IMG/VR virus record: IMGVR_UViG_3300046656_000613
Location: 30,167 to 94,166 of that record
Origin: a virus
Lineage: Duplodnaviria > Heunggongvirae > Uroviricota > Caudoviricetes
Length of the DNA: 64,000 nucleotides
Reading direction: 5' to 3' (one strand)
In this document: positions 5,477 through 62,337 of the stretch, piece after piece
Layout: every line of letters starts with the position of its first letter
Position numbering within the stretch: position 1 is the first letter of the stretch
Notes under the pieces: generated by a model
The model's database searches: none
What the model was told of the DNA's origin: nothing
Seen by the model: the letters and a program-made list of their open reading frames with translations, nothing else
Made by a program: the position numbers and the translations under genes

Positions 5477-5859
5477 GCATCCTCATCAACATAGAACCGG
5501 GCGACAGTGCCCATCAGGATCTCGCGCTCGGCGACGCGCGTGGCCTCGCGGCGACGCAGATGGACGATCGCATTATCGAGCTGCGGGAGGAGCTGGCCGC
5601 TCCACCCGCGCTCCTCCACCCAATCCACCCAGCCCTCAGTCTCGCCGCACCAGAAGCCGACTTGGCATGAATGGCGGACATAGCTGCGATGAATGCTGCC
5701 CATGCGCAAGCCGGGCTCATTGTTGATCCGATGCCGCACGGCCTCGACGAACAGGTCCAGCTCGGCCTCGACGTCTCTCACCCCCGCCACCACCGGACCA
5801 TGGCCTCGGCGCGCTCGCAACAGCCGGGGAACAGCGAGCCGCCAGCGCAGAGGCCGCAC
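5473..5859 (-). CDS. hypothetical protein
   Basis: ORF track; start uncertain. Confidence 0.3.
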   Translation of the reverse strand: MRPLRWRLAVPRLLRARRGHGPVVAGVRDVEAELDLFVEAVRHRINNEPGLRMGSIHRSYVRHSCQVGFWCGETEGWVDWVEERGWSGQLLPQLDNAIVHLRRREATRVAEREILMGTVARFYVDEDA

Positions 5860-6016: not shown

Positions 6017-6247
6017 TCACTTTCCTTCTCTCGCCTTCAATAATCTGCGCACGGCAGGGAAGTGGTCGGCAGGGAAGTGGTCGGCACCGCAGCGCGTGCA
6101 CTCCCACCCCTCGTCCAACGACCCTCCGCACAGGACGCAAGGGCTGCCTCGCGTGTCAAAGCTCGGAGGCAGGATATCGATCTCGAAGCCCGTCCTGTTC
6201 GGCGGGTTCTCGACCCAGATCGGTTTCAGCCCGGCGACGGGTCTCAT
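6017..6247 (-). CDS. hypothetical zinc-ribbon protein
   Basis: CVLCGG...CTRCG motif; contains a 15-bp tandem duplication encoding ADHFPADHFP. Confidence 0.3.
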   Translation of the reverse strand: MRPVAGLKPIWVENPPNRTGFEIDILPPSFDTRGSPCVLCGGSLDEGWECTRCGADHFPADHFPAVRRLLKAREGK

Positions 6248-8770: not shown

Positions 8771-8810
8771 GGCTATTTCAGTTTCAACCAGAGATTGGTT
8801 TACAGGACCG

Positions 8811-8838
8811 TCCGGTCCCCCTATAGTGAGGGCATAGC
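8811..8838 (-). promoter_or_regulatory. T3/T7-like single-subunit RNAP promoter core (CCCTCACTATAGGGGGA on minus strand)
   Basis: 12/12 match to CTCACTATAGGG and 16/17 to the T3/T7 core (-11 to +6); adjacent palindrome GGACCGTCCGGTCC. Confidence 0.35.
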
Positions 8839-9306: not shown

Positions 9307-9435
9307 CACACTGCTCAGCCGCGCCATGCGGCTGACTTGTGAAGCGCTACGTGCTGGGAACCTCACGAATTCCATAGGCAGCCTAGACTCCAAATCCGCC
9401 TGATCACTCCCATGGGCAACCATTGGGGGATGACA

Positions 9436-9698: not shown

Positions 9699-10193
9699 AT
9701 GACCATTAACACCTATCGCGCTGTTTTCACGGCCTCGAACGGCCTGGAAATCATCGAAAACCGCGACTATGCCAAGCCGCTCGGCTTCGCATGGCGCGTG
9801 GAATACCACAATGCCAAAGACGAGACGCAAAAGGCCGTCAAGTTCGGCTTTTCCGCCACGCGTGAAGCCGCCGACAAGGCGACCAAACTGCCCAAACGCT
9901 GCACTGTCACGCATACGCAAGTCGTGGAAGCGCAGAACGTCGGCACCGTTGCCCTTAAGGGCAAGAAACCCGCCAAGGCCAAGGCTGTGAAGCCGTGCGC
10001 CGTCGGCGATATCGTCAGTTTCGACCTGGGCACGCATCTGCCCGGCATCGCCGCGACTGTCGCGGGTAAGGTGGCCAAGCTCGGCCGCAAATATGCATAC
10101 GTGGAAGTCGCGGGCGCCCTTGATCATATCAAGGTCGCGTTCGCGAACATTCGTCCCCTCGATTCCGCCCCTGCTCAAGCGCTCGCGGCGTGA
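9699..10193 (+). CDS. hypothetical protein (164 aa)
   Basis: Strong SD GGGAGAATTGTATC before the ATG. Confidence 0.5.
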   Translation: MTINTYRAVFTASNGLEIIENRDYAKPLGFAWRVEYHNAKDETQKAVKFGFSATREAADKATKLPKRCTVTHTQVVEAQNVGTVALKGKKPAKAKAVKPCAVGDIVSFDLGTHLPGIAATVAGKVAKLGRKYAYVEVAGALDHIKVAFANIRPLDSAPAQALAA

Positions 10194-10290
10194 TCGACAG
10201 AGCACCAATTGATGGCCACAATTGGCTGTCTCTGGAATTCGTGAGGTAACCTGTATTTGCGCCTTTCATGGGCAACCATGTGAGGCAGCT

Positions 10291-11677: not shown

Positions 11678-11761
11678 CATAGCCTAACCGCCTGCCTGCC
11701 CTTCTCTTAGGAAATCATGGGAACCCGAATGCCTTCACGGGCAACCGTGTGAGGAAATACC

Positions 11762-13339: not shown

Positions 13340-13424
13340 CCTGAGTTGAGCCGCTTCCGGGCGGCTCCGCTTCAAGAGGGCAACGGTATGCATCCGTTTC
13401 GGTAAATGGAGCGGAGGAAAGAGC

Positions 13425-13604
13425 ATGGCCAAATACAGCGTAACGATTGAGGAGACGGTTCGCTACCAATTTGAAGTGGAAGCCGAATCCGAGACTGAAG
13501 CAAAGCTTGCGGCTGAAGACGCCTATGGCAATGCCGACAATCTCAATGATCATTATCTCCACAGCGAGAACCGCAAGGCAATCGACGTGGAGTTGCTGGA
13601 GTAG
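13425..13604 (+). CDS. small acidic protein (59 aa)
   Basis: SD GGAGCGGAGG; upstream box GGCTCCGCTTC is complementary to the SD. Confidence 0.4.
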   Translation: MAKYSVTIEETVRYQFEVEAESETEAKLAAEDAYGNADNLNDHYLHSENRKAIDVELLE

Positions 13605-13686
13605 CGCCTAGCGGGCTTCGGCCCGCTGCATTTCCCGAAGTGGATGCACTTCACGCCTGCCCTGCCGCGAGACAACGGAGGGCACC

Positions 13687-14140: not shown

Positions 14141-14329
14141 ATGAGCAATCTCGATATCGGCGACCGCATCACATACCACCCGCAAGGCGTGGTGCCCTCA
14201 TTGCGGGGGCAGCGCGGCGTCATCACTGCCATTGTCCGTAACGGCTGGTTCCTGGTCGATTTCGACAGGGGCTGGCTCAGCGTGAAGTGCAGTGACGTCA
14301 ACCTCGACAAGGAGAGCGCGGGCACCTAG
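14141..14329 (+). CDS. hypothetical protein (62 aa)
   Basis: ORF track. Confidence 0.4.
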   Translation: MSNLDIGDRITYHPQGVVPSLRGQRGVITAIVRNGWFLVDFDRGWLSVKCSDVNLDKESAGT

Positions 14330-14334
14330 CCCGC

Positions 14335-14386
14335 CTCGCCCTCACGTCGGGCTGCCCGCAAAGCAGCCTCATCTGGAGGCGAGTCC
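14335..14386 (+). promoter_or_regulatory. leader cassette: anti-SD box CTCGCCCTC, hairpin, SD GGAGGCGAG
   Basis: Box and SD are reverse complements and covary with other copies; hairpin GGGCTGC...GCAGCC lies between them. Confidence 0.5.
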
Positions 14387-14758
14387 ATGAACATTGAGAA
14401 TATCAACAAAACCATCGATTTCCTGAAAACCCGCAAATGGCATAGCGACGATTTCCTCATGCATGACGATTGCATGGTCGGAATCATCGGCGATGCCCTG
14501 CATGGAGATCGGGCGCACTCGCGTGCCGACAACAAGCCCTATGGGCTGCACTACATCGCCGATGCCTTTGATATCGGAGTGTCCGCCGCCCGCTGCCTTT
14601 ACATCATGAATCAGAGCGACGCGGCTGTTAACCCCTATGCCTCGCTCGCCACGTTTATGGGAATGCGGACCGAAAAGCAGAACCGCGTCCTGATCCGCAT
14701 GCTGGAGGGCCTTCGCGCCAGCGGCGGCACCCGTGTTTTCTGGGATTTCAATGCCTGA
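14387..14758 (+). CDS. hypothetical protein (123 aa)
   Basis: ORF track; preceded by a leader cassette. Confidence 0.5.
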   Translation: MNIENINKTIDFLKTRKWHSDDFLMHDDCMVGIIGDALHGDRAHSRADNKPYGLHYIADAFDIGVSAARCLYIMNQSDAAVNPYASLATFMGMRTEKQNRVLIRMLEGLRASGGTRVFWDFNA

Positions 14759-14782
14759 GACCGAGCGCGGGCGCAAGCCCGC

Positions 14783-14842
14783 CTCACCTTCCCGGAGGGC
14801 TGCCAACTCACACTCGGCAGCCCTTTTTGGAGGTGAGTTCCG
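14783..14842 (+). promoter_or_regulatory. leader cassette: anti-SD box CTCACCTTC, terminator-like hairpin plus T5, SD GGAGGTGAG, then an 11-codon uORF (14842..14874)
   Basis: Same architecture as the other copies; uORF is GTG-AGG-AGA-ATC-ACG-CCT-CAC-CAT-AAC-GCA-TAA. Confidence 0.45.
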
Positions 14843-14890
14843 TGAGGAGAATCACGCCTCACCATAACGCATAATAGCGAGTTGATTACG

Positions 14891-15340
14891 ATGGATTACG
14901 CAAAAGAGCACACCGCCGACCACACCCGCGCCCCCGATGCCGCCCGGCTCACCGAGCTGATCGAGTTCATCAAGGGCGCTCCGGCGAGCGAGCCGATCAC
15001 CGCCAAGAATTTCCGGCGCTGGTTGGTCGAGCTGGCCGGTGAAATGGTGCCGGACGGCGGCGCGCTCTGCCCTAACGGCAAGGATCACGCCTGCAATCGC
15101 GGCCTCGGCGAATGGCTCGGCATCGAGCCCTACGGCCAGGGCCGTGACGGTAGCGTGGCCTGGAATGAGCAGACCGGCTTCTCGTCGGAGCGATTCAACC
15201 GCTACGCCGACCCGGCGTGGGTTGCCGAACTGGTCAAGGCCCCGTTCGAAGAGCAGAAGGCGATGTATATCGCGCTGATCGAGCGCGTCCGTGATGCGGG
15301 CGAATTCGTCTATGACGCCAAGGTCGCGGTCGCGGCCTGA
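14891..15340 (+). CDS. hypothetical protein (149 aa)
   Basis: ATG 14891 (MDYAKEH); downstream of leader cassette and uORF. Confidence 0.45.
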   Translation: MDYAKEHTADHTRAPDAARLTELIEFIKGAPASEPITAKNFRRWLVELAGEMVPDGGALCPNGKDHACNRGLGEWLGIEPYGQGRDGSVAWNEQTGFSSERFNRYADPAWVAELVKAPFEEQKAMYIALIERVRDAGEFVYDAKVAVAA

Positions 15341-15388
15341 TAGCCTCGGCAATGCCAATGTGAGCGCGCGGTCCCTGTGATCGCGCGT

Positions 15389-15438
15389 CTCACCTTCGCG
15401 ATGGCCAGCTTAATCGGCTGGCTTTTCTGGAGGTGAGC
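15389..15438 (+). promoter_or_regulatory. leader cassette: anti-SD box CTCACCTTC, hairpin GGCCAGC..GCTGGC plus T-run, SD GGAGGTGAG
   Basis: Nine contiguous base pairs possible between box and SD. Confidence 0.5.
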
Positions 15439-15855
15439 ATGCCTGACAACGAACAACGGGCTGGCTGGGCGCTGGCATCCATCCAAGGCTTCAATAAGGC
15501 CAAGGGCGAGGTGCTGACCGATGCCGACCTGCCCGACGAGATCACAGATCTAATCGCCGATCTCGGCCACCTGTGCGACAGGCGCGGCATTGACTTTCTC
15601 ACTCACGCAAAGCGCGCCATCGGCACGTGGAGCGCGGAGAAAGAAAATCCCGAGCCCAGCATGAACCATACCGTGGAAATCGATCTCCACGGCAACCTGA
15701 CCGGCTTCGTCCGCATGATGGCGAACGCTGTCCCGGAAGTCGGCGGACTGGTCAACGACAACACCGGCGCACTGATGACGCCGGAGAGCATCCAGCGCAC
15801 CGCGCGCCATGTGCTCGAAGAAAGCGAAGCCTGCGATATCAGCGAACAGGACTAA
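15439..15855 (+). CDS. hypothetical protein (138 aa)
   Basis: ATG after SD GGAGGTGAGC. Confidence 0.5.
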   Translation: MPDNEQRAGWALASIQGFNKAKGEVLTDADLPDEITDLIADLGHLCDRRGIDFLTHAKRAIGTWSAEKENPEPSMNHTVEIDLHGNLTGFVRMMANAVPEVGGLVNDNTGALMTPESIQRTARHVLEESEACDISEQD

Positions 15856-15875
15856 CGGCTGGGGGCATTGCCCCC

Positions 15876-15926
15876 GCCACCTTCGCGTCGCGTCGCCATC
15901 ATCGGCGGCGTCATCTGGAGGTGAGC
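15876..15926 (+). promoter_or_regulatory. leader cassette: box CCACCTTCGCG, hairpin, SD GGAGGTGAG
   Basis: Same module, fourth copy. Confidence 0.45.
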
Positions 15927-16091
15927 ATGGCAGGAAGACGTGGACCCTACAACAACGAGAACGTGAAGCCGACCCGCGATCAGCCCGCGATCCGCGAGCG
16001 CATCGACAAGGAAGGCCCGGCGACGCCCGGCCGCAAGGAGGGCTCCAAGACAGGCCCGTACACTACGAAGACGGACAAGACGAAAGAGTGA
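15927..16091 (+). CDS. small basic protein (54 aa)
   Basis: ATG after the cassette; MAGRRGPYNNENVKP... Confidence 0.4.
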   Translation: MAGRRGPYNNENVKPTRDQPAIRERIDKEGPATPGRKEGSKTGPYTTKTDKTKE

Positions 16092-16116
16092 CAGGAGGGC
16101 GGGCCGCGTGCCCGCC

Positions 16117-16170
16117 TTCACCTTCGCGCCGAATTGGGCGAGATTCGCCCAATTTCGTTTGGAGGTGAAC
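16117..16170 (+). promoter_or_regulatory. leader cassette: box TTCACCTTC, 10-bp hairpin, SD GGAGGTGAA
   Basis: Box TTCACC covaries with SD GTGAAC, while other copies have CTCACC with GTGAGC. Confidence 0.5.
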
Positions 16171-16446
16171 ATGCCAAAAAAGCTACCCCCCATCCACATC
16201 CACCTTCCGCAAATGCCTCCGTCCATTGGGCTGGCGCACGACGCGGAGGGCCTGTCGATGGCGTTCACTGCCACTCCCGGCACGGATGAAGCCAAGCAAT
16301 TGGGAGGCGATTTCATCAATGCTGGACTCCGCTTGCTGGGCCGAACATCACCACAAGCAGCACTCCTCACGCGCGTGATCCGTAACGAACAACTGACCGT
16401 TGACGAATGGATCGCGACGGCGCGCGCCAAGGATATGATGAAGTGA
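16171..16446 (+). CDS. hypothetical protein (91 aa)
   Basis: ATG after the cassette. Confidence 0.5.
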   Translation: MPKKLPPIHIHLPQMPPSIGLAHDAEGLSMAFTATPGTDEAKQLGGDFINAGLRLLGRTSPQAALLTRVIRNEQLTVDEWIATARAKDMMK

Positions 16447-16709
16447 CCAGTAAAGACTACTGCGGCCGACGCGCCTGGGCGGAAGCCTGGGCGCAAAGGC
16501 TGGCGCCATCCGTCGGCACCGTTACCCCGGATGGACGCCGCATCACCTCTATCGTGGCTCAGCCCTATGGTGAAACATGGCGCTGGCCGCGATGGATCTA
16601 TAAGCGCTGGTGGTGCGTGGTCGAGCGCTGGGAATATGATGGCGAGCCCTCGCTGGGCACATTCGGCGAGGAGAACGCTCTCATGCTGGAGAGGAGAATG
16701 CCGCCGTGA
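16443..16709 (+). CDS. hypothetical Trp-rich protein (88 aa)
   Basis: GTG start overlapping the upstream stop (translational coupling). Confidence 0.35.
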   Translation: MTSKDYCGRRAWAEAWAQRLAPSVGTVTPDGRRITSIVAQPYGETWRWPRWIYKRWWCVVERWEYDGEPSLGTFGEENALMLERRMPP

Positions 16710-16831
16710 TGGAGTTCTTGACCGACCCGGCTGGTAGCCTGCTGATCGAGGACTTGATCACGCTGGCCGCCGTCCTTGTCTTTGCCGGGCGCAAGTGGGC
16801 GCTCGCGCGTTCATAGCATGGTGAAATGACA

Positions 16832-16869
16832 AAGGCCCCGGTTAGCCGTATAAGCTAAGCCGGGGCCTT
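16832..16869 (+). terminator. long GC-rich hairpin terminator
   Basis: AAGGCCCCGG...CCGGGGCCTT 10-bp stem with inner 5-bp stem, followed by TTGTTGT. Confidence 0.5.
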
Positions 16870-16891
16870 GTTGTATGTGGAAAGGAAAACA

Positions 16892-17050
16892 ATGACTCAG
16901 AAAGACAACCCGACGCCGCCGAGCCGTGAGGATGTGGTCCGCGAGGACTACGAAAAAGATCCGGGCGGCTTTGAGGACAAGTGGGGCGTAGACCCCAGCG
17001 CGCCGCCACCCGAGACGCAAGATCCGGGCGCGCCGGGCAAACGACACTAA
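16892..17050 (+). CDS. hypothetical Pro-rich small protein (52 aa)
   Basis: ATG after AAAGGAAAACA. Confidence 0.35.
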   Translation: MTQKDNPTPPSREDVVREDYEKDPGGFEDKWGVDPSAPPPETQDPGAPGKRH

Positions 17051-17076
17051 CCTACCGGGGCGGCCTTTCGGGGCCG

Positions 17077-17132
17077 CTCCTCCCGTGATGCGCTGCCTGT
17101 CCGTATCAGGCGGCGTTTTTTGGGAGGAGTTT
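17077..17132 (+). promoter_or_regulatory. leader cassette: anti-SD box CTCCTCCC, intrinsic terminator hairpin plus T6, SD GGGAGGAG
   Basis: Perfect 8-nt complementarity between box and SD; different sequence but same logic as the 14.3-16.2 kb copies. Confidence 0.5.
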
Positions 17133-17312
17133 ATGCCTGCCGATTATCACCTTCGGCCTGATCTGATCGGGCCGCTGATCGACGCCATCGCCTTCTCCGG
17201 CGACCCGCGCCTGGATGAGCTGATGGAGGAGCTGGACAGCATCCGCAAGGAAACGGAAGCCGGTCGCAACGTCATCGTCTCCATAGGCCACACCAATGAG
17301 GCGAGCACATGA
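17133..17312 (+). CDS. hypothetical protein (59 aa)
   Basis: ATG after SD GGGAGGAG. Confidence 0.4.
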   Translation: MPADYHLRPDLIGPLIDAIAFSGDPRLDELMEELDSIRKETEAGRNVIVSIGHTNEAST

Positions 17313-17715: not shown

Positions 17716-17817
17716 CACCTAGGCCGGGGGAAACCCCGGCCGCCTTCCCAGATCATTTCAACACCGGCGTTAAAATGATCTGGGTGGGCGGCTGAAACGC
17801 CCAGGTAGGAGAGTCCT

Positions 17818-17991: not shown

Positions 17992-18190
17992 TCGCAGCCG
18001 GACAGGCCACCTGGACCCCCGCGGGGTGAACGATGGTAGCCGGCAAGATGAAGACTACAAGGGGCGCTCGCGGCATCCGTCCGCTTGCGTCCCCAACGCA
18101 TACCACTGCGTAAACTGACCCCGGCCGAACAGCGCGGGGCGAGTACCGCTCCGCCCGGCCGGGGATCGTCCCCTGTGACCGGAGACAATC

Positions 18191-19149: not shown

Positions 19150-19241
19150 TGGCGGATAGGGCAGGATTCGAACCTGCGGGCCACGCTTTCGCGGACCAAC
19201 GATTTAGCAAACCGCCGCAATCGGCCTCTCTGCCACCTATC
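19150..19241 (-). tRNA. tRNA-Ser (GCT), type II
   Basis: Acceptor GGATAGG/CCTATCC, anticodon loop TTGCTAA, long variable arm, T-loop TTCGAAT, CCA encoded. Confidence 0.7.
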
Positions 19242-19311
19242 CAGGCTTCCCGATGGAATCCTGTCCTTAGACTCGCATCCCAACCTTATCGCACATATTC
19301 CACCCTGGCAA

Positions 19312-19406
19312 TGGCGGAGGAGGTAGGATTTGAACCCACGGGGCGCACTCTCGTGTCCCGACGGTTTTCAAGACCGCTGCCTTAAGCCAGACTCAGCCAC
19401 TCCTCC
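19312..19406 (-). tRNA. tRNA-Ser (TGA), type II
   Basis: Acceptor GGAGGAG with complementary CTCCTCC; a one-base anchor conflict forces a G-U at the 7:66 pair, possibly hiding an off-by-one in the gene or in the ORF track; anticodon loop CTTGAAA; long variable arm. Confidence 0.7.
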
Positions 19407-19630
19407 AACTCAAACAGGGCGCTGGCGACGGGGCGTTACCCCGTTGGCTCGATTGACTTGTGCACGTCGTGCAAGCGCGCCAGCATTAACTCGATACGGG
19501 TCTAGAGGACATGGGGATTGTACCTCCAGTTGCGATTCTTCGCGTTTGCGCCTCTTCGCCGGTTCCCTAAACCGAACCCGCTCTGGCCGATCACTTCCAT
19601 CGACCGGGGCCGGTCTTTCAGGCCCGTGTT

Positions 19631-19706
19631 TGGTAGCGGGAGTCGGATTTGAACCGACGACCTCCAGTTTATGAGACTGGCGAGCACTCCGCTGCTCTAT
19701 CCCGCA
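19631..19706 (-). tRNA. tRNA-Met (CAT), U1:U72 mismatch (initiator-like or elongator unresolved)
   Basis: Anticodon loop CTCATAA; perfect anticodon stem CCAGT/ACTGG; T-loop TTCAAAT. Confidence 0.7.
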
Positions 19707-19712
19707 ATAATT

Positions 19713-19789
19713 TGGTGCCACCGGCACGGTTTTGAACCTGCGACCTGCCGCTTACAAGGCGGCTGCTCTACCATCTGAGCTACGGCGGC
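19713..19789 (-). tRNA. tRNA-Thr (TGT)
   Basis: Acceptor GCCGCCG; anticodon stem GCCGC/GCGGC with loop CTTGTAA; T-stem has a 1-nt bulge. Confidence 0.7.
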
Positions 19790-19795
19790 GAAACT

Positions 19796-19869
19796 GGTTC
19801 TCCCTCAAGGATTCGAACCTCAACCTTTGCGTCCAGAGCGCAACGTCACTACCGTTAGACGAAGGGAGA
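19796..19869 (-). tRNA. tRNA-Gln (CTG)
   Basis: Anticodon loop CTCTGGA; D-arm similar to enterobacterial tRNA-Gln; T-loop TTCGAAT. Confidence 0.65.
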
Positions 19870-19872
19870 CCT

Positions 19873-19947
19873 TGGTCCTGAAGGCCAGAATTGAACTGGC
19901 GTTTCGCGGTCCACAGCCGCGCGTCCTAGCCACTGAACGACATCAGG
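19873..19947 (-). tRNA. tRNA-His (GTG) with no encoded G-1 and A73 discriminator
   Basis: Anticodon stem CGCGG/CCGCG with loop CTGTGGA; base before position 1 is C, not G. Confidence 0.65.
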
Positions 19948-19949
19948 GT

Positions 19950-20024
19950 TGGTCTGCGCGGCCTGGGTCGAACAGGCGGTCTCCTGATCCCAAATCAGGC
20001 GGATTACCTCTTTCCTACGCGCAG
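19950..20024 (-). tRNA. tRNA-Pro (TGG)
   Basis: C1:G72 acceptor CTGCGCG/CGCGCAG; anticodon stem CCTGA/TCAGG with loop TTTGGGA. Confidence 0.75.
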
Positions 20025-28689: not shown

Positions 28690-29080
28690 CGAAAGTCTTA
28701 GACTGGTCTTTAGGCTAAAGCAGTGACGTGCTGGTTCGAGTCCAGCCCCCGGCACCAACCTATGCCGGGGTGGCGAAATGGTAGACGCAGCGGTTCCCAG
28801 GATCGTGTCACTTCAGATTTAGACTATTCCAACCAGACTGAGCAGATGCCGTGCCGGACCTATCGACCGGCTCCACAATGAAACGATAGACAGGAGTTCG
28901 AATCTCCTCCGGCTCGCCAAATCCTTATGAGCCGGTAGTCTAGTTGGTATGACGATCGTTATAAGCTTAAGTGGAGTCTAAACTGCCGAGGTCTGGAGTG
29001 AGCGGTTTAGGTAGCTCAATGGGTAGAGCAACACCCTTGTAAGGTGTCGGTAGCAGGTTCAAATCCTGCCCTATATCAAA
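28690..29080 (+). other. cluster of chimeric or permuted tRNA-like segments (three units) ending in a tRNA-Thr(TGT)-like gene with no CCA (29007..29078)
   Basis: Perfect T-arms GCTGGTTCGAGTCCAGC and AGGAGTTCGAATCTCCT; D-arms TGGCGAAATGGTAGACGC and TAGTCTAGTTGGTATGAC; each 3' acceptor strand pairs with the 5' acceptor of the next unit rather than its own. Confidence 0.5.
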
Positions 29081-39073: not shown

Positions 39074-39426
39074 CATACCAAGAAGGCGTCGATAAATGGC
39101 TGCTCGCATGCTTTGGCGAGGAGATCGCCCGCGACAAGGCCGAGCGCAGTCACCGCTTCATCGAAGAAGCGCTGGAGCTGGTCCAGGCGGCCGGCTGTTC
39201 GAAGGAGGAGACGCTGGCGCTGGTTGATTATGTCTATGGCCGCGATGTTGGCGAAATCAAGCAGGAGGTTGGCGGCGTAATGAACACGCTGGCCGCGCTC
39301 TGCCTTGCTTATGGCATTGACATGACCATCGCCGCCGAAGCCGAGATGGCGCGTTGCTGGCTATTGGTGGATAAAATTCGCGCCAAACAGGCCGCCAAGC
39401 CGAAATTTTCACCGCTCCCACAATGA
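39070..39426 (+). CDS. MazG-like nucleotide pyrophosphohydrolase (putative)
   Basis: All-alpha protein with EEALELVQA...GRDVGEIKQE arrangement reminiscent of MazG/HisE. Confidence 0.4.
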   Translation: MTYQEGVDKWLLACFGEEIARDKAERSHRFIEEALELVQAAGCSKEETLALVDYVYGRDVGEIKQEVGGVMNTLAALCLAYGIDMTIAAEAEMARCWLLVDKIRAKQAAKPKFSPLPQ

Positions 39427-39433
39427 GGGTCGC

Positions 39434-40465
39434 ATGAACGAACTGACCACGGCGGCCCCTGGCCGCGCCCTCCAGGACATCCCCATCGGCGGCCCGGCAC
39501 CCATGCCGCGCATCCTGATTCCCGATGAGGTGATCGATAACGCGCTGCGCATCGCGCGGATTGCCGTCGGCTCGGGGCTGATGAAGGCCACCGACGGCGA
39601 TGCCGTCGCGATAGCCACGATGATCATCTTGAAGGGCCGCGATCTGGACATGAGTCCGACGACGGCGCTGGATTCCATCGCGCTGATCAATGGCCGCACA
39701 TGCGTCTGGGGCAAGGCGGTGCCGGCCCTGGTGCGCTCGCGCGGCCACCGCATCCGCGAATGGGAGACCGGCACGCGGATGGCCGACGACTGGACCTTCT
39801 ATTGCGAGATCACCCGCGGCGACACCGGCGAGATCGTCACCCGGTCCTTCAGCGTCACCGACGCCAAGCAGGCCCAGCTCTGGAATCAGGAGCCGATCCT
39901 CAAGAAGCGCGGGCGCGACGGCCCCTATGAAAAGCCGAACGACAGCCCGTGGTTTAGATATCCGCAGCGCATGCTGCCCGCTCGCGCCCGCGGCTACGCT
40001 GCCGCCGACGGCGCGTCGGAGGCGCTTCTGGGAATGTACACCGTCGAGGAGATGCAAGATGTGGCGCGGGTCGAAGGGGAAATGGAGGAAATCCGTGGAA
40101 CGCTTGTCACTGCGCCGCCACCGCCACCTCTCCTTGACCAAGAGCAAGCACAAGATCAGAATGATGAAAATCCGGCCGTGGATGCAGCCGGGCCGCAGCC
40201 CGCTGAGGTCGATCGGCCGGGCGACAGCGTATCCGACACCGCGCCCGAGACGCCGGCCGATCAAGCCGAAGAGACTCTCGGAGCCGTCGAGGTGGCTGCG
40301 GTGGCATGCGCTGGCGCGATGAGCCAAGCCAAGACGGTCGATCGGCTGGACAAGCTGATGGACGCCTTCAACGCCAAGTATGATGGCGAGATCACCATCA
40401 AGATTTCCACCCAACTCGAAATGATCTATAACCAGAACAAGGATCGGATCGAGAACCCGAAATGA
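39434..40465 (+). CDS. RecT-like single-strand annealing protein
   Basis: Sits next to a NinB/Orf homologue; the N-terminal half resembles RecT-family proteins; acidic low-complexity C-terminus. Confidence 0.45.
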   Translation: MNELTTAAPGRALQDIPIGGPAPMPRILIPDEVIDNALRIARIAVGSGLMKATDGDAVAIATMIILKGRDLDMSPTTALDSIALINGRTCVWGKAVPALVRSRGHRIREWETGTRMADDWTFYCEITRGDTGEIVTRSFSVTDAKQAQLWNQEPILKKRGRDGPYEKPNDSPWFRYPQRMLPARARGYAAADGASEALLGMYTVEEMQDVARVEGEMEEIRGTLVTAPPPPPLLDQEQAQDQNDENPAVDAAGPQPAEVDRPGDSVSDTAPETPADQAEETLGAVEVAAVACAGAMSQAKTVDRLDKLMDAFNAKYDGEITIKISTQLEMIYNQNKDRIENPK

Positions 40466-45954: not shown

Positions 45955-46029
45955 GCTGGGGTAGCTCAGTGGTAGAGCGTCGCGTTGAAGGCGCGAGCGT
46001 CGGTGGTTCAACCCCATCCCCCAGCACCA
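45955..46029 (+). tRNA. tRNA-Phe (GAA)
   Basis: Perfect acceptor GCTGGGG/CCCCAGC; anticodon stem TCGCG/CGCGA with loop TTGAAGG; CCA encoded. Confidence 0.85.
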
Positions 46030-46031
46030 AT

Positions 46032-46106
46032 TGGCATGAAGCACAGCGGTTGTGCATCTGGCTGTTAACCAGGGGGCCGCAGGTTCGAATCCTGCCTTGC
46101 CAGCCA
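46032..46106 (+). tRNA. tRNA-Asn (GTT)
   Basis: Anticodon stem TCTGG/CCAGG with loop CTGTTAA; T-loop TTCGAAT; one U:U in the acceptor. Confidence 0.7.
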
Positions 46107-46111
46107 TATTC

Positions 46112-46185
46112 GGGGATATAGCTCAGTGGCAGAGCATTGCTCTTGCAAAGCAACGACCGGGGTTCGATTCCCCGTTTCTCCACCA
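46112..46185 (+). tRNA. tRNA-Ala (TGC)
   Basis: G3:U70 wobble present; anticodon loop CTTGCAA. Confidence 0.75.
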
Positions 46186-46190
46186 AATTC

Positions 46191-46264
46191 GGGAGTGTAG
46201 CTTAGTGGTAAAGCGGCGGTCTCCAAAACCGCTGGCCGCGGTTCGATTCCGCGCTCTCCCGCCA
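46191..46264 (+). tRNA. tRNA-Trp (CCA)
   Basis: Anticodon stem GCGGT/ACCGC with loop CTCCAAA. Confidence 0.7.
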
Positions 46265-46265
46265 T

Positions 46266-46340
46266 GGTCCCTTCGTCTAAAGGTCAGGATTGCGCACTTT
46301 CACTGCGCCGGTGTCGGGTTCGAGTCCCACAGGGATCACC
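46266..46340 (+). tRNA. tRNA-Glu (TTC)-like, weak T-stem
   Basis: Resembles enterobacterial tRNA-Glu (GTCCCTTCGTCTA...); anticodon loop CTTTCAC; T-stem only 3 bp. Confidence 0.5.
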
Positions 46341-46448
46341 AAAGTTAGCTGTGTCGTGGTCCGCGAAAGCCTGGACGGGCACTGGCGGAGAACGGCAAGC
46401 GGTTAGCAGCCACGAGGCTGCGCAAGCAAGCTGTTCCCGCCCCGGATT

Positions 46449-46522
46449 GCGAATGTAGCTTAATGGTAGAGCAGGGCGTTGCCAACGCTCAGACGCGAGT
46501 TCGATTCTCGCCCTTCGCTCCA
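46449..46522 (+). tRNA. tRNA-Gly (GCC)
   Basis: Anticodon loop TTGCCAA; T-arm GCGAGTTCGATTCTCGC. Confidence 0.7.
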
Positions 46523-46528
46523 GTTTCC

Positions 46529-46603
46529 GCGAACATAGCTCAGCGGCAGAGCGCCACGCTTCCAACGTGGGCGTCGGGAGTTCGATCCTCCCTGTTCGCT
46601 CCA
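46529..46603 (+). tRNA. tRNA-Gly (TCC)
   Basis: Perfect acceptor GCGAACA/TGTTCGC; anticodon stem CACGC/GCGTG with loop TTCCAAC. Confidence 0.8.
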
Positions 46604-46610
46604 AACTTAT

Positions 46611-46713
46611 GCGGGAATAGTGTAAAGCGCACGCCGGTTAACCGGAAGTACGGTATAGATGGTCAATCCGCGGTAGCGGCCATCGTCGGGGCGGTTCCCC
46701 GTTTCCCGCTCCA
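46611..46713 (+). tRNA. atypical 103-nt tRNA-like element (perfect acceptor GCGGGAA/TTCCCGC plus CCA)
   Basis: Acceptor pairing and CCA present but the body is too long and the T-arm non-canonical; possible intron-containing gene or pseudo-tRNA. Confidence 0.35.
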
Positions 46714-46718
46714 GTCAT

Positions 46719-46796
46719 GCCCCCGTAGCTCAGTGGAACAAGAGCGCTGGCCTACGAAGCCGGATGTCGCAGGTTCGAATCCTGCCGGGGGCTCCA
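46719..46796 (+). tRNA. tRNA-Arg (ACG)
   Basis: Perfect acceptor GCCCCCG/CGGGGGC; anticodon loop CTACGAA. Confidence 0.8.
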
Positions 46797-46854
46797 ATAT
46801 CGCACCAGGATCTACTTGTCGTCAACAAGTATTGGTGCTATATATTACTACAGT

Positions 46855-46931
46855 GCCCCTCTGGGCAAATGGTAAAGTCGCTGGACCCAGACTCCAGAGT
46901 TATCCCGGTTCGAGTCCGGGGAGGGGCACCA
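46855..46931 (+). tRNA. tRNA with anticodon CAG (Leu-type) but a short variable arm
   Basis: Perfect acceptor GCCCCTC/GAGGGGC; anticodon stem CTGGA/TCCAG with loop CCCAGAC (C33 unusual); class-I length. Confidence 0.45.
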
Positions 46932-46936
46932 CTCTC

Positions 46937-47013
46937 GCGCGGGTGGGCAAACGGTAAAGTCGCTGCCTTGAGGTGGCAGAGCACTGCGGGTTCGAATCCC
47001 GCTCCGCGCACCA
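46937..47013 (+). tRNA. tRNA with anticodon GAG (Leu-type) but a short variable arm
   Basis: Anticodon stem CTGCC/GGCAG with loop TTGAGGT (U33, G37); T-arm GCGGGTTCGAATCCCGC; 77 nt. Confidence 0.5.
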
Positions 47014-47017
47014 ATAC

Positions 47018-47094
47018 GGACCCGTCGCCAAGTGGTTTACGGCACCTGACTCTTAATCAGGCATGCGCTGGTTCGAATCCAGCCGGGTCTACCA
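47018..47094 (+). tRNA. tRNA-Lys (CTT)
   Basis: Anticodon stem CCTGA/TCAGG with loop CTCTTAA. Confidence 0.8.
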
Positions 47095-47101
47095 TTCTTA
47101 C

Positions 47102-47190
47102 GGGCTCTTTTCCCTTCGGCGGGCTGTAAACCCGTTGGCTATGAAATAGAGGGGTCGGTGCCGAGCAGTTCAAATCTGCGGGAGCCCACC
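47102..47190 (+). tRNA. tRNA-Tyr (GTA)-like, type II length, aberrant D-arm
   Basis: Anticodon loop CTGTAAA identical to bacterial tRNA-Tyr; acceptor GGGCTCT/GGAGCCC pairs; 89 nt; D-arm cannot be folded confidently. Confidence 0.4.
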
Positions 47191-47219
47191 ATTCACGGAA
47201 ACCAAAGGCGAGAACTAAC

Positions 47220-48161
47220 ATGAGACAAATCTCTGACGGCGGCCCGAGCGGACAAGGCAGCAGCCTGATGCTCGGCGGCTGGCTGACCATCGGCGCGGTG
47301 GTGGTCAGCATCCTGATCGCATTCTGGAGCTATTACACCGTGGACGCCGGCCATGTGGCGGTGATCAAGCGCTTCGGCGCGGTGCAAGAGGGCTATTACG
47401 GCCCCGGCCTGCATTTCAAGAACCCGCTGCTCGACAGCGTGGTCCACGTCAACACTCAGCTCAGCAGCGTCGAGGCCAAGGCCGGCGCCGCCTCCAAGGA
47501 CATGCAGGTTGTCACCACCGAGGTGAGCGTGCCTTATTACCTGCAAGACCCGCAGGTGCCGACGATGATCAATGCGCTCGGCTCGCGCGAGGTGCTGGCC
47601 AAGAGCGTCCTGGCGACCGCCATTCAGGAGTCCGTCAAGAGCGCCACGGCCGGCTATACGGCCGAGGAGCTGCTCACCCGGCGCAATGAGGTGAAAGCCA
47701 AGATCGTCTCCGGCATCGTCGCCTACGTCAACGACACCCTGCGCGCCAAGAAAATCGAAGGGCTGGTCGGCATCGCCAATGTCGGCATCACCGACTTCGA
47801 CTTCTCCCCCGACTTCAACAAGGCCATCGAACAGAAGGTCCGCATGCAGCAGGACGCTCTGCGCGCCGAGATCGAGAAGACCAAGCGCATCACCGAGGCC
47901 GAGGCGAAATTTGCCGAAGCGAAGCTGAGTGCCGACGGCGAAGCCTACAAGACCAAGACCGAGGCGGAAGCCCGGATCTTCGCGATCGAGGGCGAGGGCA
48001 AGGCGATCCGCGAGAACCCCGGCATCGTGCCGCTGCGTATCGCCGAACGCTGGGATGGCACTCTGCCGAAATATAACAGCTCGACACTGCCCATGTTCAT
48101 GATGCAGGCTGAGCCCGAGACCGCCACACCGACGTCGCCGACGCGCGCGGCCACCCGGTAG
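47220..48161 (+). CDS. SPFH/band-7 (prohibitin/HflK-like) membrane protein
   Basis: N-terminal TM then GHVAVIKRFGAV...GLHFKNPLLDSVVHVNTQ... SPFH core and a coiled-coil C-terminus; embedded in the tRNA array. Confidence 0.8.
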   Translation: MRQISDGGPSGQGSSLMLGGWLTIGAVVVSILIAFWSYYTVDAGHVAVIKRFGAVQEGYYGPGLHFKNPLLDSVVHVNTQLSSVEAKAGAASKDMQVVTTEVSVPYYLQDPQVPTMINALGSREVLAKSVLATAIQESVKSATAGYTAEELLTRRNEVKAKIVSGIVAYVNDTLRAKKIEGLVGIANVGITDFDFSPDFNKAIEQKVRMQQDALRAEIEKTKRITEAEAKFAEAKLSADGEAYKTKTEAEARIFAIEGEGKAIRENPGIVPLRIAERWDGTLPKYNSSTLPMFMMQAEPETATPTSPTRAATR

Positions 48162-48168
48162 CAAGACT

Positions 48169-48243
48169 GGTTCTGTAGCTCAGCGGTAGAGCGTGCGCCA
48201 TATAAGCGCTTGGTCCCAGGTTCGATCCCTGGCAGAACTACCA
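48169..48243 (+). tRNA. tRNA with anticodon loop CATATAA (Ile- or Met-like, unresolved)
   Basis: Acceptor GGTTCTG/CAGAACT; T-arm CCAGGTTCGATCCCTGG; coordinates adjusted +1 to match the ORF track. Confidence 0.5.
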
Positions 48244-48246
48244 GAC

Positions 48247-48322
48247 GGTCCCGTAGCTCAATGGACAGAGCGCCGGCTTCCGAAGCCGAAGGTTGCAGGT
48301 TCGAGTCCTGCCGGGATCGCCA
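48247..48322 (+). tRNA. tRNA-Arg (CCG)
   Basis: Anticodon loop TTCCGAA; T-arm GCAGGTTCGAGTCCTGC. Confidence 0.7.
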
Positions 48323-48339
48323 TCAATCAGGAGAGACGC

Positions 48340-48549
48340 ATGACCACGCAGCGCGTGCGGGGCAAGACGGAACGCAGTTGGACATGGCGCGTCTTCAAGC
48401 GCTATGCGCTTCTGGACAATTCCAGGATCTTCTTTGCGATTGTTGCCCGGTTTCCGCCCCGGCGCGATCTGTGGTGCTGGCTCCATCGTTGGCCGGAGGG
48501 CATCGACATCAGGGTGTGGCCGGTCGATTTATTTATTAAGCGCGCCTAG
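48340..48549 (+). CDS. small hypothetical protein (69 aa) inside the tRNA array
   Basis: ATG after SD CAGGAGAG; Trp/Arg-rich. Confidence 0.3.
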   Translation: MTTQRVRGKTERSWTWRVFKRYALLDNSRIFFAIVARFPPRRDLWCWLHRWPEGIDIRVWPVDLFIKRA

Positions 48550-48615
48550 CCCAACGGGAGAGGCAACACCGTTAAGCCGTGTAAAGTGTCAGTTCGAATC
48601 TGACGGCGCGTACCA
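48540..48615 (+). tRNA. tRNA with anticodon TAA (Leu-type) but class-I length
   Basis: Acceptor GCGCGCC/GGCGCGT; anticodon loop GTTAAGC; T-arm GTCAGTTCGAATCTGAC; 76 nt. Confidence 0.45.
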
Positions 48616-48619
48616 AATA

Positions 48620-48696
48620 AGGTGTGGGAGCCAGACGGCAGCGGCGCTTGGTTGCAACCCAAGAGATAGCCGGTTCAATTCCGGCCCACACTTCCA
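48620..48696 (+). tRNA. tRNA-Cys (GCA)
   Basis: Perfect anticodon stem CTTGG/CCAAG with loop TTGCAAC. Confidence 0.75.
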
Positions 48697-48788
48697 AAAT
48701 CGCAGTTAGAGGGTCGCGCCCTGTCGGGTTTCTGGGCGGTTCTGGCAAGCAATCCTCTATGCAAAGCTGGCTCGGGGCGCTGCGATAC

Positions 48789-48825
48789 GCTCTTGACACG
48801 TTTCGCTATGCAATATATGGTTCTG
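48789..48825 (+). promoter_or_regulatory. sigma70-like promoter (CTTGACA, 16-17 nt, TATATG) inside the tRNA array
   Basis: Good -35/-10 with canonical spacing, upstream of tRNA-Asp. Confidence 0.4.
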
Positions 48826-48948
48826 TTGTCCCCGGCTCGCATGGGCGCGGTGCACCGGATTTGCGTAGCCCTAGCCTTGTGCCTACAATATGGCCGTAAA
48901 CATGATAAGCCGGCTGAGGAAGCATAGTAAACCGGGGGCACCCCTTAT

Positions 48949-49023
48949 GGTCTGTTAGCTCAGTGGTAGAGCGCCGGCTTGTCACGTCGTAGGTCGCGGG
49001 TTCAATTCCCGCACAGATCGCCA
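48949..49023 (+). tRNA. tRNA-Asp (GTC)
   Basis: Anticodon loop TTGTCAC; T-arm GCGGGTTCAATTCCCGC. Confidence 0.8.
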
Positions 49024-49025
49024 AT

Positions 49026-49102
49026 GGTCCCGTAGCTCAGTTGGTAGAGCGCCCGTTTTACATGCGGAAGGTCGCAGGTTCAAATCCGTGCCGGGACTAC
49101 CA
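49026..49102 (+). tRNA. tRNA-Val (TAC), bulged T-stem
   Basis: Anticodon loop TTTACAT; acceptor GGTCCCG/CGGGACT. Confidence 0.6.
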
Positions 49103-49107
49103 TTTTC

Positions 49108-49182
49108 GCCCTTGTAGCTCATCGGCAGAGCACGTCATTGGTGATGACGGGGCAGCAGGTTCAATTCCTGCCTGGGGCACCA
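49108..49182 (+). tRNA. tRNA-Thr (GGT)
   Basis: Perfect anticodon stem CGTCA/TGACG with loop TTGGTGA. Confidence 0.7.
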
Positions 49183-49198
49183 TTATAGGAGTGGAGTT

Positions 49199-49471
49199 AT
49201 GGCAGCGGCAGCGGTCACATGTAGAGCATTTCTTGAAGCCAGACCGGGCATCAGCGTCATTGATCTCGCAACCGAGGCTGTTGCCGATCACATCGAGAAG
49301 AACGGCTGCGCCTTTGAGGACAACGCCCCGGCTCGCGCCGTTGAGCTGCTCGGAATCGACCCACACAGCGTGGCGACGGCGCTTCCGCCCGAGATTTTGA
49401 AGCGCCTTGAAGATGCGCTGGAAGACATGGAGACATATTGTCCCCACCGGACGCTTGGCCAAGTGGCTTAA
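49199..49471 (+). CDS. small hypothetical protein (90 aa) whose 3' end overlaps tRNA-Lys
   Basis: SD AGGAGTGGAG before the ATG; overlaps the next tRNA by about 23 nt. Confidence 0.3.
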   Translation: MAAAAVTCRAFLEARPGISVIDLATEAVADHIEKNGCAFEDNAPARAVELLGIDPHSVATALPPEILKRLEDALEDMETYCPHRTLGQVA

Positions 49472-49525
49472 GGCACCCGACTTTTAATCGGAAGATCCTG
49501 GGTTCGAATCCCAGAGCGTCCACCA
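49449..49525 (+). tRNA. tRNA-Lys (TTT)
   Basis: Perfect acceptor GGACGCT/AGCGTCC; anticodon loop CTTTTAA. Confidence 0.75.
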
Positions 49526-49526
49526 T

Positions 49527-49600
49527 GGTCTCGTAGCTCAACGGTAGAGCATCCGACCGATAATCGGCCGACCGTGGTTCAACTCCACGCGAGACTACCA
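49527..49600 (+). tRNA. tRNA-Ile (GAT)
   Basis: Anticodon loop CCGATAA; T-arm CGTGGTTCAACTCCACG. Confidence 0.65.
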
Positions 49601-49602
49601 TC

Positions 49603-49679
49603 GGCCCCGTAGTTCAATGGAATAGAACGCCCGTCTTCTAAGCGGGATGTTGCGGGTTCGACTCCTGCCGGGGCCACCA
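49603..49679 (+). tRNA. tRNA-Arg (TCT)
   Basis: Perfect acceptor GGCCCCG/CGGGGCC; anticodon loop CTTCTAA. Confidence 0.8.
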
Positions 49680-59668: not shown

Positions 59669-59670
59669 GA

Positions 59671-62331: not shown

Positions 62332-62337
62332 GAATGA

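Follow-up and report, generated by a model that had tools for sequence, protein, structure and literature searches.

Why would a phage place in front of one small gene after another a sequence that is complementary to the ribosome-binding site of that very gene? The question is raised by a stretch of 64,000 nucleotides (positions 30,167 to 94,166 of the IMG/VR virus record IMGVR_UViG_3300046656_000613, in the following called the window), in which the genes starting at 14387, 15439, 15927, 16171 and 17133 are each preceded by a box, a hairpin, an extended Shine-Dalgarno sequence (SD) with which the box can pair, and the ATG; the same arrangement lies in the leader of the gene starting at 14891. 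A first-pass annotation had described this leader cassette as a module shared by at least six consecutive small genes. The six copies are there, but the genes are not strictly consecutive, as those starting at 16443, 16709 and 16892, between copies five and six, have no module. Judged by the comparison of related phages, the cassette is almost certainly a real structure that is maintained in evolution, and modelled folds indicate that it probably masks the SD of the gene that follows. What opens this lock is the less certain part of the answer, for which a cut of the transcript within the helix is favoured here.

Covariation and anatomy of the cassette

Homologues of the 149-aa gene at 14891 number 15. 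Among the contigs concerned, L010, L011 and L012 are syntenic relatives of the window (identity of the 149-aa protein 77-83%) and L009 is a fragment of another relative, whereas in a second contig group (L013-L018), used as a control, the homologue lies in a different phage backbone. Copies of the cassette were searched with a covariance model (R1) built from 14 copies, three from the window and 11 from relatives, which replaced a hand-written stem detector and a scan for contiguous pairs that had been too noisy and had missed true copies. With filters off, over all 64 kb and on both strands, the model matched the window at exactly six places, all on the + strand and spanning 14335-17135, with 31-62 bits, the next best match reaching only 13.8 bits; the copies at 14783, 16117 and 17077 had been outside the training set and were still matched. 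In L009-L012 and L018 the model detected another 27 copies, each of them on the sense strand, and it detected six more in two metagenome contigs that a pattern scan had recovered, so that 33 copies are known beyond the window, across seven contigs, and 39 in total, every one of them on the strand of the genes. In IMG/VR there were no copies, exact-pattern scans giving only chance matches in coding sequence and then none, and a pattern scan of GTDB genomes gave a single chance match in a gene of the Anaerolineae. An extra copy considered at 62.87 kb was rejected, as it lies inside coding sequence and is undetected by the model. Two metagenome contigs with 44-50% G+C hold a cassette-like hairpin of 18.5 bits that has no clamp hairpin (L021, 591-655; L026, 842-906).

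The alignment on which the following counts are based has 35 rows, which are 33 copies (those of the window, L009-L012 and L018) and two partial rows, and was guided by the model. Standard pairs fill 96.2% of its cells, compared with 75% in shuffles and 39-53% when the partners are slid against each other. Changes on both sides are found in 17 of 20 pairs, with 138 compensatory cells, and none of 500 shuffles reached any of the observed measures. An alignment that is fitted to a model inflates such counts, but RNAalifold, unaided, gives the same helix, with 15 of 18 pairs compensated. Lower-stem pairs occur, for example, as AU, UA, GC and CG, as CG, UA and UG, or as UA and CG, and the box and SD words plainly differ between copies (TTTCTCCCG/TGGGAGAAA, CTCGTCTTCC/GGAGACGAG, TTTCCTTCG/TGGAGGAAA, CTCGCCTTCC/GGAAGGCGAG). 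In four phages a copy occupies the equivalent place beside the conserved 149-aa gene, and the stems of these copies differ and are yet paired. The covariation of box and SD that had been noticed within the window is thus borne out in the related phages, and it is on this comparative evidence that the structure can be regarded, with little doubt, as real and evolutionarily maintained.

From 5' to 3', a cassette consists of the stop codon of the upstream gene, a GC-rich clamp hairpin (HP1), a basal stem formed by box and SD, a hinge, an apical stem and the ATG. HP1 is present in at least 36 of the 39 copies and in most of them ends 0-2 nt before the long hairpin (HP2); at least 13 of the 39 have the loop cUUCGg and at least three the loop GCAA. 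The basal stem of HP2 has 9-10 bp, in which the box (consensus CUCACCUUCG) pairs with the extended SD of the next gene (UGGAGGUGAG). With 8-9 nt complementary to 16S rRNA this SD is unusually long, and the box, which resembles the 3' end of 16S rRNA, is interrupted by a U·G wobble in 26/33 copies, by which it may be a slightly weaker partner of the SD than the ribosome is. The hinge that follows has four positions: the first is a pyrimidine opposite a pyrimidine in 33/33 copies, the second a G·U in 32/33, the third a freely covarying pair, and the fourth a C·C in 21/33, otherwise another mismatch or, in copies with a U-run, an A-U. Its 3' strand, immediately 5' of the SD, is pyrimidine-rich, most commonly CAUCU or CGUCU and not a U-run, with TTTT or TTTC in about 9/33 copies. 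Above the hinge, the upper stem is free in sequence, with a median of 8 bp (7-13) and a loop of 3-11 nt. The whole HP2 helix measures a median of 22 bp-equivalents (18-26) with the hinge 9-10 bp above its base, and the ATG comes 1-5 nt after the stem. The clamp hairpin in front of the box, the conserved hinge and the constant length of about 22 bp had no place in the first description of the module. In L011 (2509-2612) a cassette contains a tRNA directly behind its box CTCACCTTC, after which come the apical hairpin, a U-run and the SD; this tRNA has 55 bits in Rfam, an anticodon loop with UAA and a very long variable arm, and was missed by ARAGORN.

In the window, the box pairs with the SD in the RNAfold minimum-energy folds of all six copies, and all features are on the + strand. 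Copy 1 has its HP1 at 14318..14334 (GCGGGC-acCTAg-GCCCGC by RNAfold), in the loop of which the upstream gene ends with its stop codon (TAG, 14327-14329), at a distance of only 5 nt from the box; in its long hairpin (14335..14383; covariance match 14335-14389, 61.6 bits, E=1e-15) the box CTCGCC(C)TCA pairs with the SD TGG(A)GGCGAG, the hinge is CGTC/CATC, and the ATG of a 123-aa gene follows at 14387. The sequence of this copy had been given as CTCACCTTC, when in fact it reads CTCGCC...GGAGGCGAG. It is copy 2 that has the box CTCACCTTC, paired with GGAGGTGAG in a hairpin at 14783..14837 (match 14783-14844, 31.1 bits, not a training copy) with TTTTT after the apical stem, and with an HP1 of GCGGGC-GCAA-GCCCGC, a GNRA loop, in front of it (14767..14782). 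In copy 3, HP1 (15364..15388; GCGCGCGGTC-cctgt-GATCGCGCGT) is followed by a hairpin at 15389..15437 (match 15389-15443, 54.5 bits), in which the box CTCACCTTCG pairs with TGGAGGTGAG below the hinge CGAT/TTTC, and by the ATG at 15439. The SD TGGAGGTGAG is found again in copy 4, where it pairs with the box CCACCTTCG (15877..15925; match 15877-15931, 57.6 bits; hinge CGTC/CATC; ATG at 15927) behind the HP1 GGGGGC-att-GCCCCC (15861..15875). Copies 5 and 6 are the remaining two from outside the training set. The former has an HP1 at 16097..16116 (GGGCGGGC-cgcgt-GCCCGCC) and a long hairpin at 16117..16169 (match 16117-16175, 38.4 bits) with the box TTCACCTTCG paired with TGGAGGTGAA, the hinge CGCC/CGTT and the ATG at 16171; the latter has an HP1 at 17059..17077 (GGCGGCC-tttc-GGGGCCGC) and a long hairpin at 17077..17129 (match 17077-17135, 33.8 bits) with the box CTCCTCCCG paired with TGGGAGGAG, a terminator-like TTTTTT after the apical stem and the ATG at 17133.

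The proteins encoded after the cassettes are mutually unrelated and often start with Met-Pro (ATGCC), as at 15439, 16171 and 17133 of the window and at 6110 and 6479 of L012, which suggests that the conservation of the cassette extends a few bases into the coding region. The leader of the 149-aa gene is more complex, as an 11-codon upstream open reading frame (uORF; 14842-14874) and a second hairpin intervene between copy 2 and the ATG at 14891. An additional leader of 40-60 nt with its own hairpin, between the cassette and the 149-aa gene, is found at 14838-14890, in L010 at 9961-10000 and in L012 at 5521-5560. The uORF, to which attention had been drawn, runs from the GTG at 14842 to the TAA at 14874 and is not kept in the relatives: L010 has TTG-CAG-TAA and L012 has no start codon. 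No SD is obvious before the true start at 14891, and the locked "SD" of copy 2 thus serves no conserved reading frame directly.

Probable masking of the ribosome-binding site at the RNA level

The cassette acts as RNA, in the sense orientation. This follows from an excess of G·U pairs, which fill 127 of 664 alignment cells compared with about 10 cells of A·C or C·A, from the fold bias between the strands, with a mean energy of -30.2 kcal/mol for the sense and -23.8 kcal/mol for the antisense strand and a more stable sense fold in 31/33 copies, and from the HP1 tetraloops, which are stable and specific to RNA. No Rfam family matched the cassettes at E<=1.

As to the SD, its median predicted probability of being unpaired is 0.004 in the cassettes. 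For all genes of the operon in which the cassettes lie, taken from five related contigs, the median is 0.079, with 47% of the genes below 0.05, as compared with 0.46 and 5% in the other phage group (Mann-Whitney p = 4e-15) and a median of 0.44 in a rough set of 22 other genes of the window. To expose the 9-nt footprint of the SD would cost 7-13 kcal/mol in the copies of the window, and over all copies a median of 9.8 kcal/mol at 37 C and 12.0 kcal/mol at 25 C. The thermodynamic model thus makes it probable that the cassette functionally masks the SD. The repression may be strong or modest, as the cost of exposure is large but the SDs are unusually long. Two central points of the first-pass annotation, that a covarying RNA structure hides the ribosome-binding site and that the cassette is a coordinated feature of an accessory-gene array, are supported by the covariation, by the unaided RNAalifold helix and by the low SD accessibility both of the recurring cassette and of its operon. 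An RNA that would act in trans by complementarity to the box was considered and rejected, as the only other GAAGGTGA sites lie inside coding sequence.

Genes of the operon that have no cassette often carry other SD-masking hairpins. In the upstream half of the operon, a mini-hairpin CCTTCAYGG-GCAA-CCRTGTGAGG, the 3' arm of which is the SD, occurs at 9404-9434, 10260-10290 and 11729-11761; its GNRA loop motif at 9413, 10269 and 11738 precedes the gene starts (9435, 10291 and 11762) by about 22 nt, the core YGGGCAACCR occurs five times where 0.67 are expected, and the motif is found again in L010 and L012. Local SD-masking hairpins are present also in the leaders of the genes at 13425 and 13687, at 13393-13416 (TCCGTTTCG/TGGAGCGGA) and 13661-13683 (GCCCTGCCG...CGGAGGGC), and both of them are kept, with compensatory changes, in L009, L010 and L012. 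The gene at 13.4 kb had been counted as fitting the module. The complementarity that had been seen there, CUCCGCUUC/GGAGCGGAG, does exist, but the fold uses TCCGTTTCG/TGGAGCGGA instead, and since the covariance model does not detect this leader, and since its different local hairpin is conserved in the relatives, it belongs to another SD-masking family.

Possible ways of opening the lock

How, then, would the masked genes be expressed? The reading that is favoured here, with a probability of about 0.4, is suggested by the anatomy of the cassette and regards it as RNA punctuation of a polycistronic early transcript, in which the SD would stay locked until the hinge is cut and HP1 would protect the upstream 3' end. 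Every cassette SD on the transcript would be locked as soon as it is made, until a double-strand-specific endonuclease, most plausibly the RNase III of the host, cuts the distorted centre of the two-turn helix. This cut would separate the box from the SD and make the downstream cistron translatable, and HP1 would at the same time stay behind at the 3' end of the upstream cistron, as a hairpin that protects it. Copies with a U-run in the hinge strand may in addition terminate some transcripts. That the unlocking step is a processing of the RNase III type is a tentative proposal in its own right, to which the geometry of the helix points. An idealised RNase III substrate has 22 bp, which is two helical turns (PMC3867540), and mismatches at the target site favour cuts of a single strand, by which stabilising 3' hairpins arise (PMC3867540); the cassette helix, with its median of 22 bp-equivalents and the hinge mismatches 9-10 bp up, has these two features. 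The polycistronic early RNA of T7 is cut by RNase III at five intercistronic sites (PMC3867540), and all copies of the cassette likewise sit between genes of the same strand, on what is presumably one co-transcribed early array. For adhE and the lambda gene cIII, an occluded ribosome-binding site is known to be freed by RNase III cleavage (PMC5371410). Processing is favoured over bare masking because the helix has a fixed length of two turns and a distorted centre that hardly varies, because the clamp adjoins it directly, and because hairpins elsewhere in the operon are simpler: masking by itself needs no extra anatomy, plain mini-hairpins of 9 bp being used for it at other SDs of this operon. 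Also the tRNA in the L011 cassette would fit, because its processing by RNase P would sever the box from the SD in the proposed cut region.

Several points weigh against cleavage as the opening step. Everything that speaks for RNase III is geometric, the upper stem varies between 7 and 13 bp, so that the cut could not be measured from the loop, and in about 5/33 copies an A-U pair stands in place of the second mismatch of the hinge. The box:SD duplex of 9-10 bp would still have to dissociate after the cut. The long SD could itself offset the 7-13 kcal/mol, for which de Smit and van Duin have reportedly provided the basis, and translation may then proceed without any cleavage. Pfam and PADLOC scans gave no candidate for a phage-encoded RNA-binding protein or nuclease among the proteins of the operon, and the operon is called early on account of its gene content and position.

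These objections lead to the alternative that survives best, which is that the cassette only tunes translation: the box:SD helix would be in equilibrium with ribosome binding, and the extended SD, the U·G and the hinge would let the 30S subunit, via S1 or standby binding on the pyrimidine-rich strand, open the structure at a low uniform rate, by which potent accessory proteins are kept at low dose. The masking of unusually long SDs, a box that the U·G makes weaker than the anti-SD of 16S rRNA, the pyrimidine-rich hinge strand just 5' of the SD, the simple mini-hairpins of other genes and the operon-wide shift in accessibility all agree with such a tuner, which is a possibility to be taken seriously even if a doubtful one, as it does not account for a helix with a constant length of 22 bp, for a hinge that hardly varies, for an HP1 with RNA tetraloops directly in front, or for the tolerance of a tRNA insertion.

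Intrinsic terminators or attenuators, whose fractional stops set a polarity gradient and whose stems reach the SD by chance, are unlikely as the general explanation. T-runs are indeed found behind the apical stem of four among the six copies in the window; with at least five T in the 9 nt before the SD core they occur in 14/33 copies overall, and with six T in 5/33. Such copies would fit, and the one at 17.09 kb passes a terminator scan (17090-17116). It is, however, the only copy that the scan flags, the majority have CAUCU or CGUCU at this place, the 14 terminator-like sites of the region are not above the 11.3 expected from shuffles, and a covarying basal stem with its end exactly at the SD is nothing that a terminator needs.

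A role at the DNA level is suggested by the distribution of homology. In BLASTN comparisons with the relatives, homology blocks begin or end at the box or the ATG (14759-15443, 14780-15441, 14891-15400, and from 17139 onward), and two islands of 60-79 bp between unrelated genes consist of the cassette only (15870-15929 and 16101-16179). The apical stem of copy 4 is found also in L010 (11881-11934), flanked by unrelated genes, and L010-L012 lack homologues of the genes that follow copies 3, 4 and 5, of which the one behind copy 3 has a partial match in the L009 fragment. Going by these alignments, the cassettes frame the hypervariable part of the gene array and coincide with recombination boundaries, because their ends are conserved and the genes are not; they may promote exchange or merely survive it. 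If the cassette were in essence a recombination linker, its ends would be short homologies for gene exchange, possibly by way of the phage RecT and exonuclease, and the RNA fold would be secondary. The module-only islands, the same variant between unrelated genes and the RecT-like gene at 39326-40465 would suit a linker, which needs sequence identity, though, and not compensatory pairing, a strand bias of G·U or RNA tetraloops. Mosaic breaks at gene boundaries are moreover common in phages that have no such element, and a linker function in place of the RNA function is improbable. The two aspects can also be combined, in that the cassette would be an SD lock until a double-strand-specific nuclease cuts the hinge, a tetraloop cap, and a plug-in socket for swapped accessory genes. 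These genes, none of which is annotated accordingly, would plausibly have anti-defence functions, and the array would resemble an integron without an integrase; this threefold role is rather unlikely, if less so than the linker by itself.

Translational coupling, in which the SD would be freed by a ribosome that melts the structure as it terminates on the gene upstream, has in its favour that HP1 starts 2-9 nt after the upstream stop codon in many copies and that in copy 1 the stop lies inside HP1. The box, though, is usually 19-30 nt after the stop, and when the RNA was kept unpaired up to 13 nt past the stop, the probability of an unpaired SD rose more than tenfold and above 0.2 in only 1 of 31 copies, the median going from 0.0029 to 0.0018, so that coupling is very improbable. 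The first-pass annotation had also thought of a thermosensor or a switch that depends on the entry of single-stranded DNA, and even though ROSE and fourU elements likewise have a paired SD and nearby DUF932 and DpnD/PcfM-like genes are typical of regions that enter first, both are hardly credible: with about -30 kcal/mol and the exposure costs given above the hairpins are far too stable for a thermometer, no ROSE, fourU or other Rfam thermometer matched, and a hairpin promoter in single-stranded DNA disagrees with the preference for the sense strand and the RNA-type loops, with the A·C mismatches that the sense G·U pairs become on the template strand, with stems that are too short and too GC-rich for -35 and -10 boxes, and with the lack of promoter-like hexamers in the array, where no sigma-70-like promoter was found on the + strand within 13.3-17.2 kb.

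Genomic setting and known systems

The cassettes are part of an operon at about 8.8-19 kb, in which all genes from about 9.08 to 19.07 kb are on the + strand, downstream of a divergent region of 352 nt that contains the best sigma-70-like site of the area (8799-8827). Its first gene encodes a DUF932 protein, a DpnD/PcfM-like protein is encoded within it, and the remaining products are small proteins without a known family (Pfam and PADLOC scans of at least 20 operon proteins), which makes it likely to be an early or accessory operon. Near the cassettes there are further structured regions. A large terminator-like hairpin (AAAGGCCCCGG...CCGGGGCCTT) lies at 16826-16866, after the gene that ends at 16816, and is 88% conserved in L010 and L012, where a cassette comes 3-9 nt after it. 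The intergenic region at 17716-17817 contains a nearly perfect inverted repeat of 12 bp (CCCAGATCATTT...AAATGATCTGGG) enclosed by GCCGCC/GGCGGC, and about 200 nt at 17992-18190, before the gene at 18191, form a structured region that is kept in L010 and L011; either of these two could be a non-coding RNA. The end of the operon directly adjoins a minus-strand cluster of tRNA genes (19150-20024), an arrangement that is kept in L010.

This cluster is one of three, the others being at 29004-29078 (+) and 45955-49679 (+), and the total of 29 tRNA genes is unusually high for 64 kb. The window has 61% G+C and encodes also a prim-pol/helicase pair, Bro-N/ANT and DUF1376 proteins, and, on the minus strand at 49769-59695, a polyvalent protein of 3308 aa with a Ros/MucR-type domain (residues 756-823) and an LPD38 domain; after this ORF comes an 888-aa protein (59671-62337, minus strand) with a weak VgrG3-C-like match. 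It plausibly belongs to an uncultured, tRNA-rich phage of an alpha-proteobacterium. DUF932 had suggested the leading region of a conjugative plasmid, which was set aside because of the 29 tRNA genes, the phage-type replication genes and the antirepressor genes. Metagenome contigs of Logan and JGI contain identical sequence. When the region was searched at the nucleotide level, in near and distant modes, neither the phages of GenBank nor the plasmids of PLSDB gave a match. In tblastn, the RecT-like and the 149-aa gene had no close relative among the GenBank phages; viral contigs scanned at the protein level gave no match, and hardly any homologues exist of the 138-aa gene that follows copy 3.

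Among known systems, the early RNase III sites of T7 (R0.3, R0.5, R1, R1.1 and R1.3) are, like the cassettes, intercistronic hairpins of a polycistronic early transcript with a two-turn helix that is interrupted centrally. The interruption differs, as the cassette hinge has two 1x1 pyrimidine mismatches around a G·U, whereas the T7 sites have a larger asymmetric internal loop. The cut at the T7 sites leaves a stabilising 3' hairpin on the upstream message (PMC3867540), and in adhE and cIII the ribosome-binding site is occluded until the cut takes place (PMC5371410). Unlike all of these, the cassette is unrelated in sequence, includes the SD in its basal stem in every copy and has a separate clamp hairpin in front. 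Locking as such is known from T4, where long read-through transcripts keep the SD or AUG of e, soc, 49 and I-TevI closed in a helix, by which translation is reduced about 100-fold (PMC3014915). In these cases, each of them unique, a late promoter inside the hairpin bypasses the lock, whereas the cassette is repeated and has no promoter-like sequence between box and SD.

Repeated motifs before gene starts are known from cluster K mycobacteriophages, in which the SD-containing SAS lies 3-7 bp before the starts of non-structural genes with long intergenic gaps; about half of the SAS have upstream inverted repeats in addition (ESAS), and of their function, which is unknown, the authors favour that of DNA-binding sites (PMC3203893). 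The cassette has neither the 13-bp SAS motif GGGATAGGAGCCC nor the 17-bp inverted repeats of ESAS, which do not covary and do not pair with the SD (PMC3203893); its motif is a different one, its repeats covary, and they include the SD. Arrays of integron attC sites resemble the array of cassettes in that small genes of one orientation alternate with imperfect palindromes, which are conserved at their ends, vary in the centre and mark where one cassette borders on the next. Hairpins of attC in the mRNA can reportedly impede the translation of the next cassette, a finding that is ascribed to Jacquier et al. (2009). The attC core RYYYAAC/GTTRRRY is absent, however, as the ends of the phage cassette are CTCACCTTCG ... 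TGGAGGTGAG, without a GTT core, and its palindrome is at the 5' end of the gene, includes the SD and is selected on the sense RNA strand; no integrase turned up in the window, in which no search was aimed at integrases. Finally, the T4 endoribonuclease RegB controls early mRNAs globally by acting on their intergenic GGAG SDs, where secondary structure protects the sites (PMC3014915). RegB inactivates mRNA by cutting an unpaired SD, whereas the SD of the cassette is paired and the proposed cut, at another place, would activate; a RegB-like protein was not found.

SD-masking hairpins (T4), intercistronic RNase III sites (T7) and repeated start-associated motifs (cluster K) are thus known separately, and none of these systems has all the features of the cassette. 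What appears to be new, from the sequence comparison, is a repeated covarying SD-locking helix with a conserved central hinge and an adjoining clamp that is reused before many unrelated genes. Its 39 natural variants are a ready mutational series for SD masking and for the site choice of double-strand-specific nucleases outside E. coli. If the processing reading is true, the cassette would be a compact natural part of about 75 nt that insulates neighbouring genes, sets translation by one processing step and stabilises the upstream message, and it would provide a sequence signature by which hypervariable accessory-gene islands can be found in uncultured phages, in which whole arrays of accessory genes would be gated post-transcriptionally by a single enzyme of the host.

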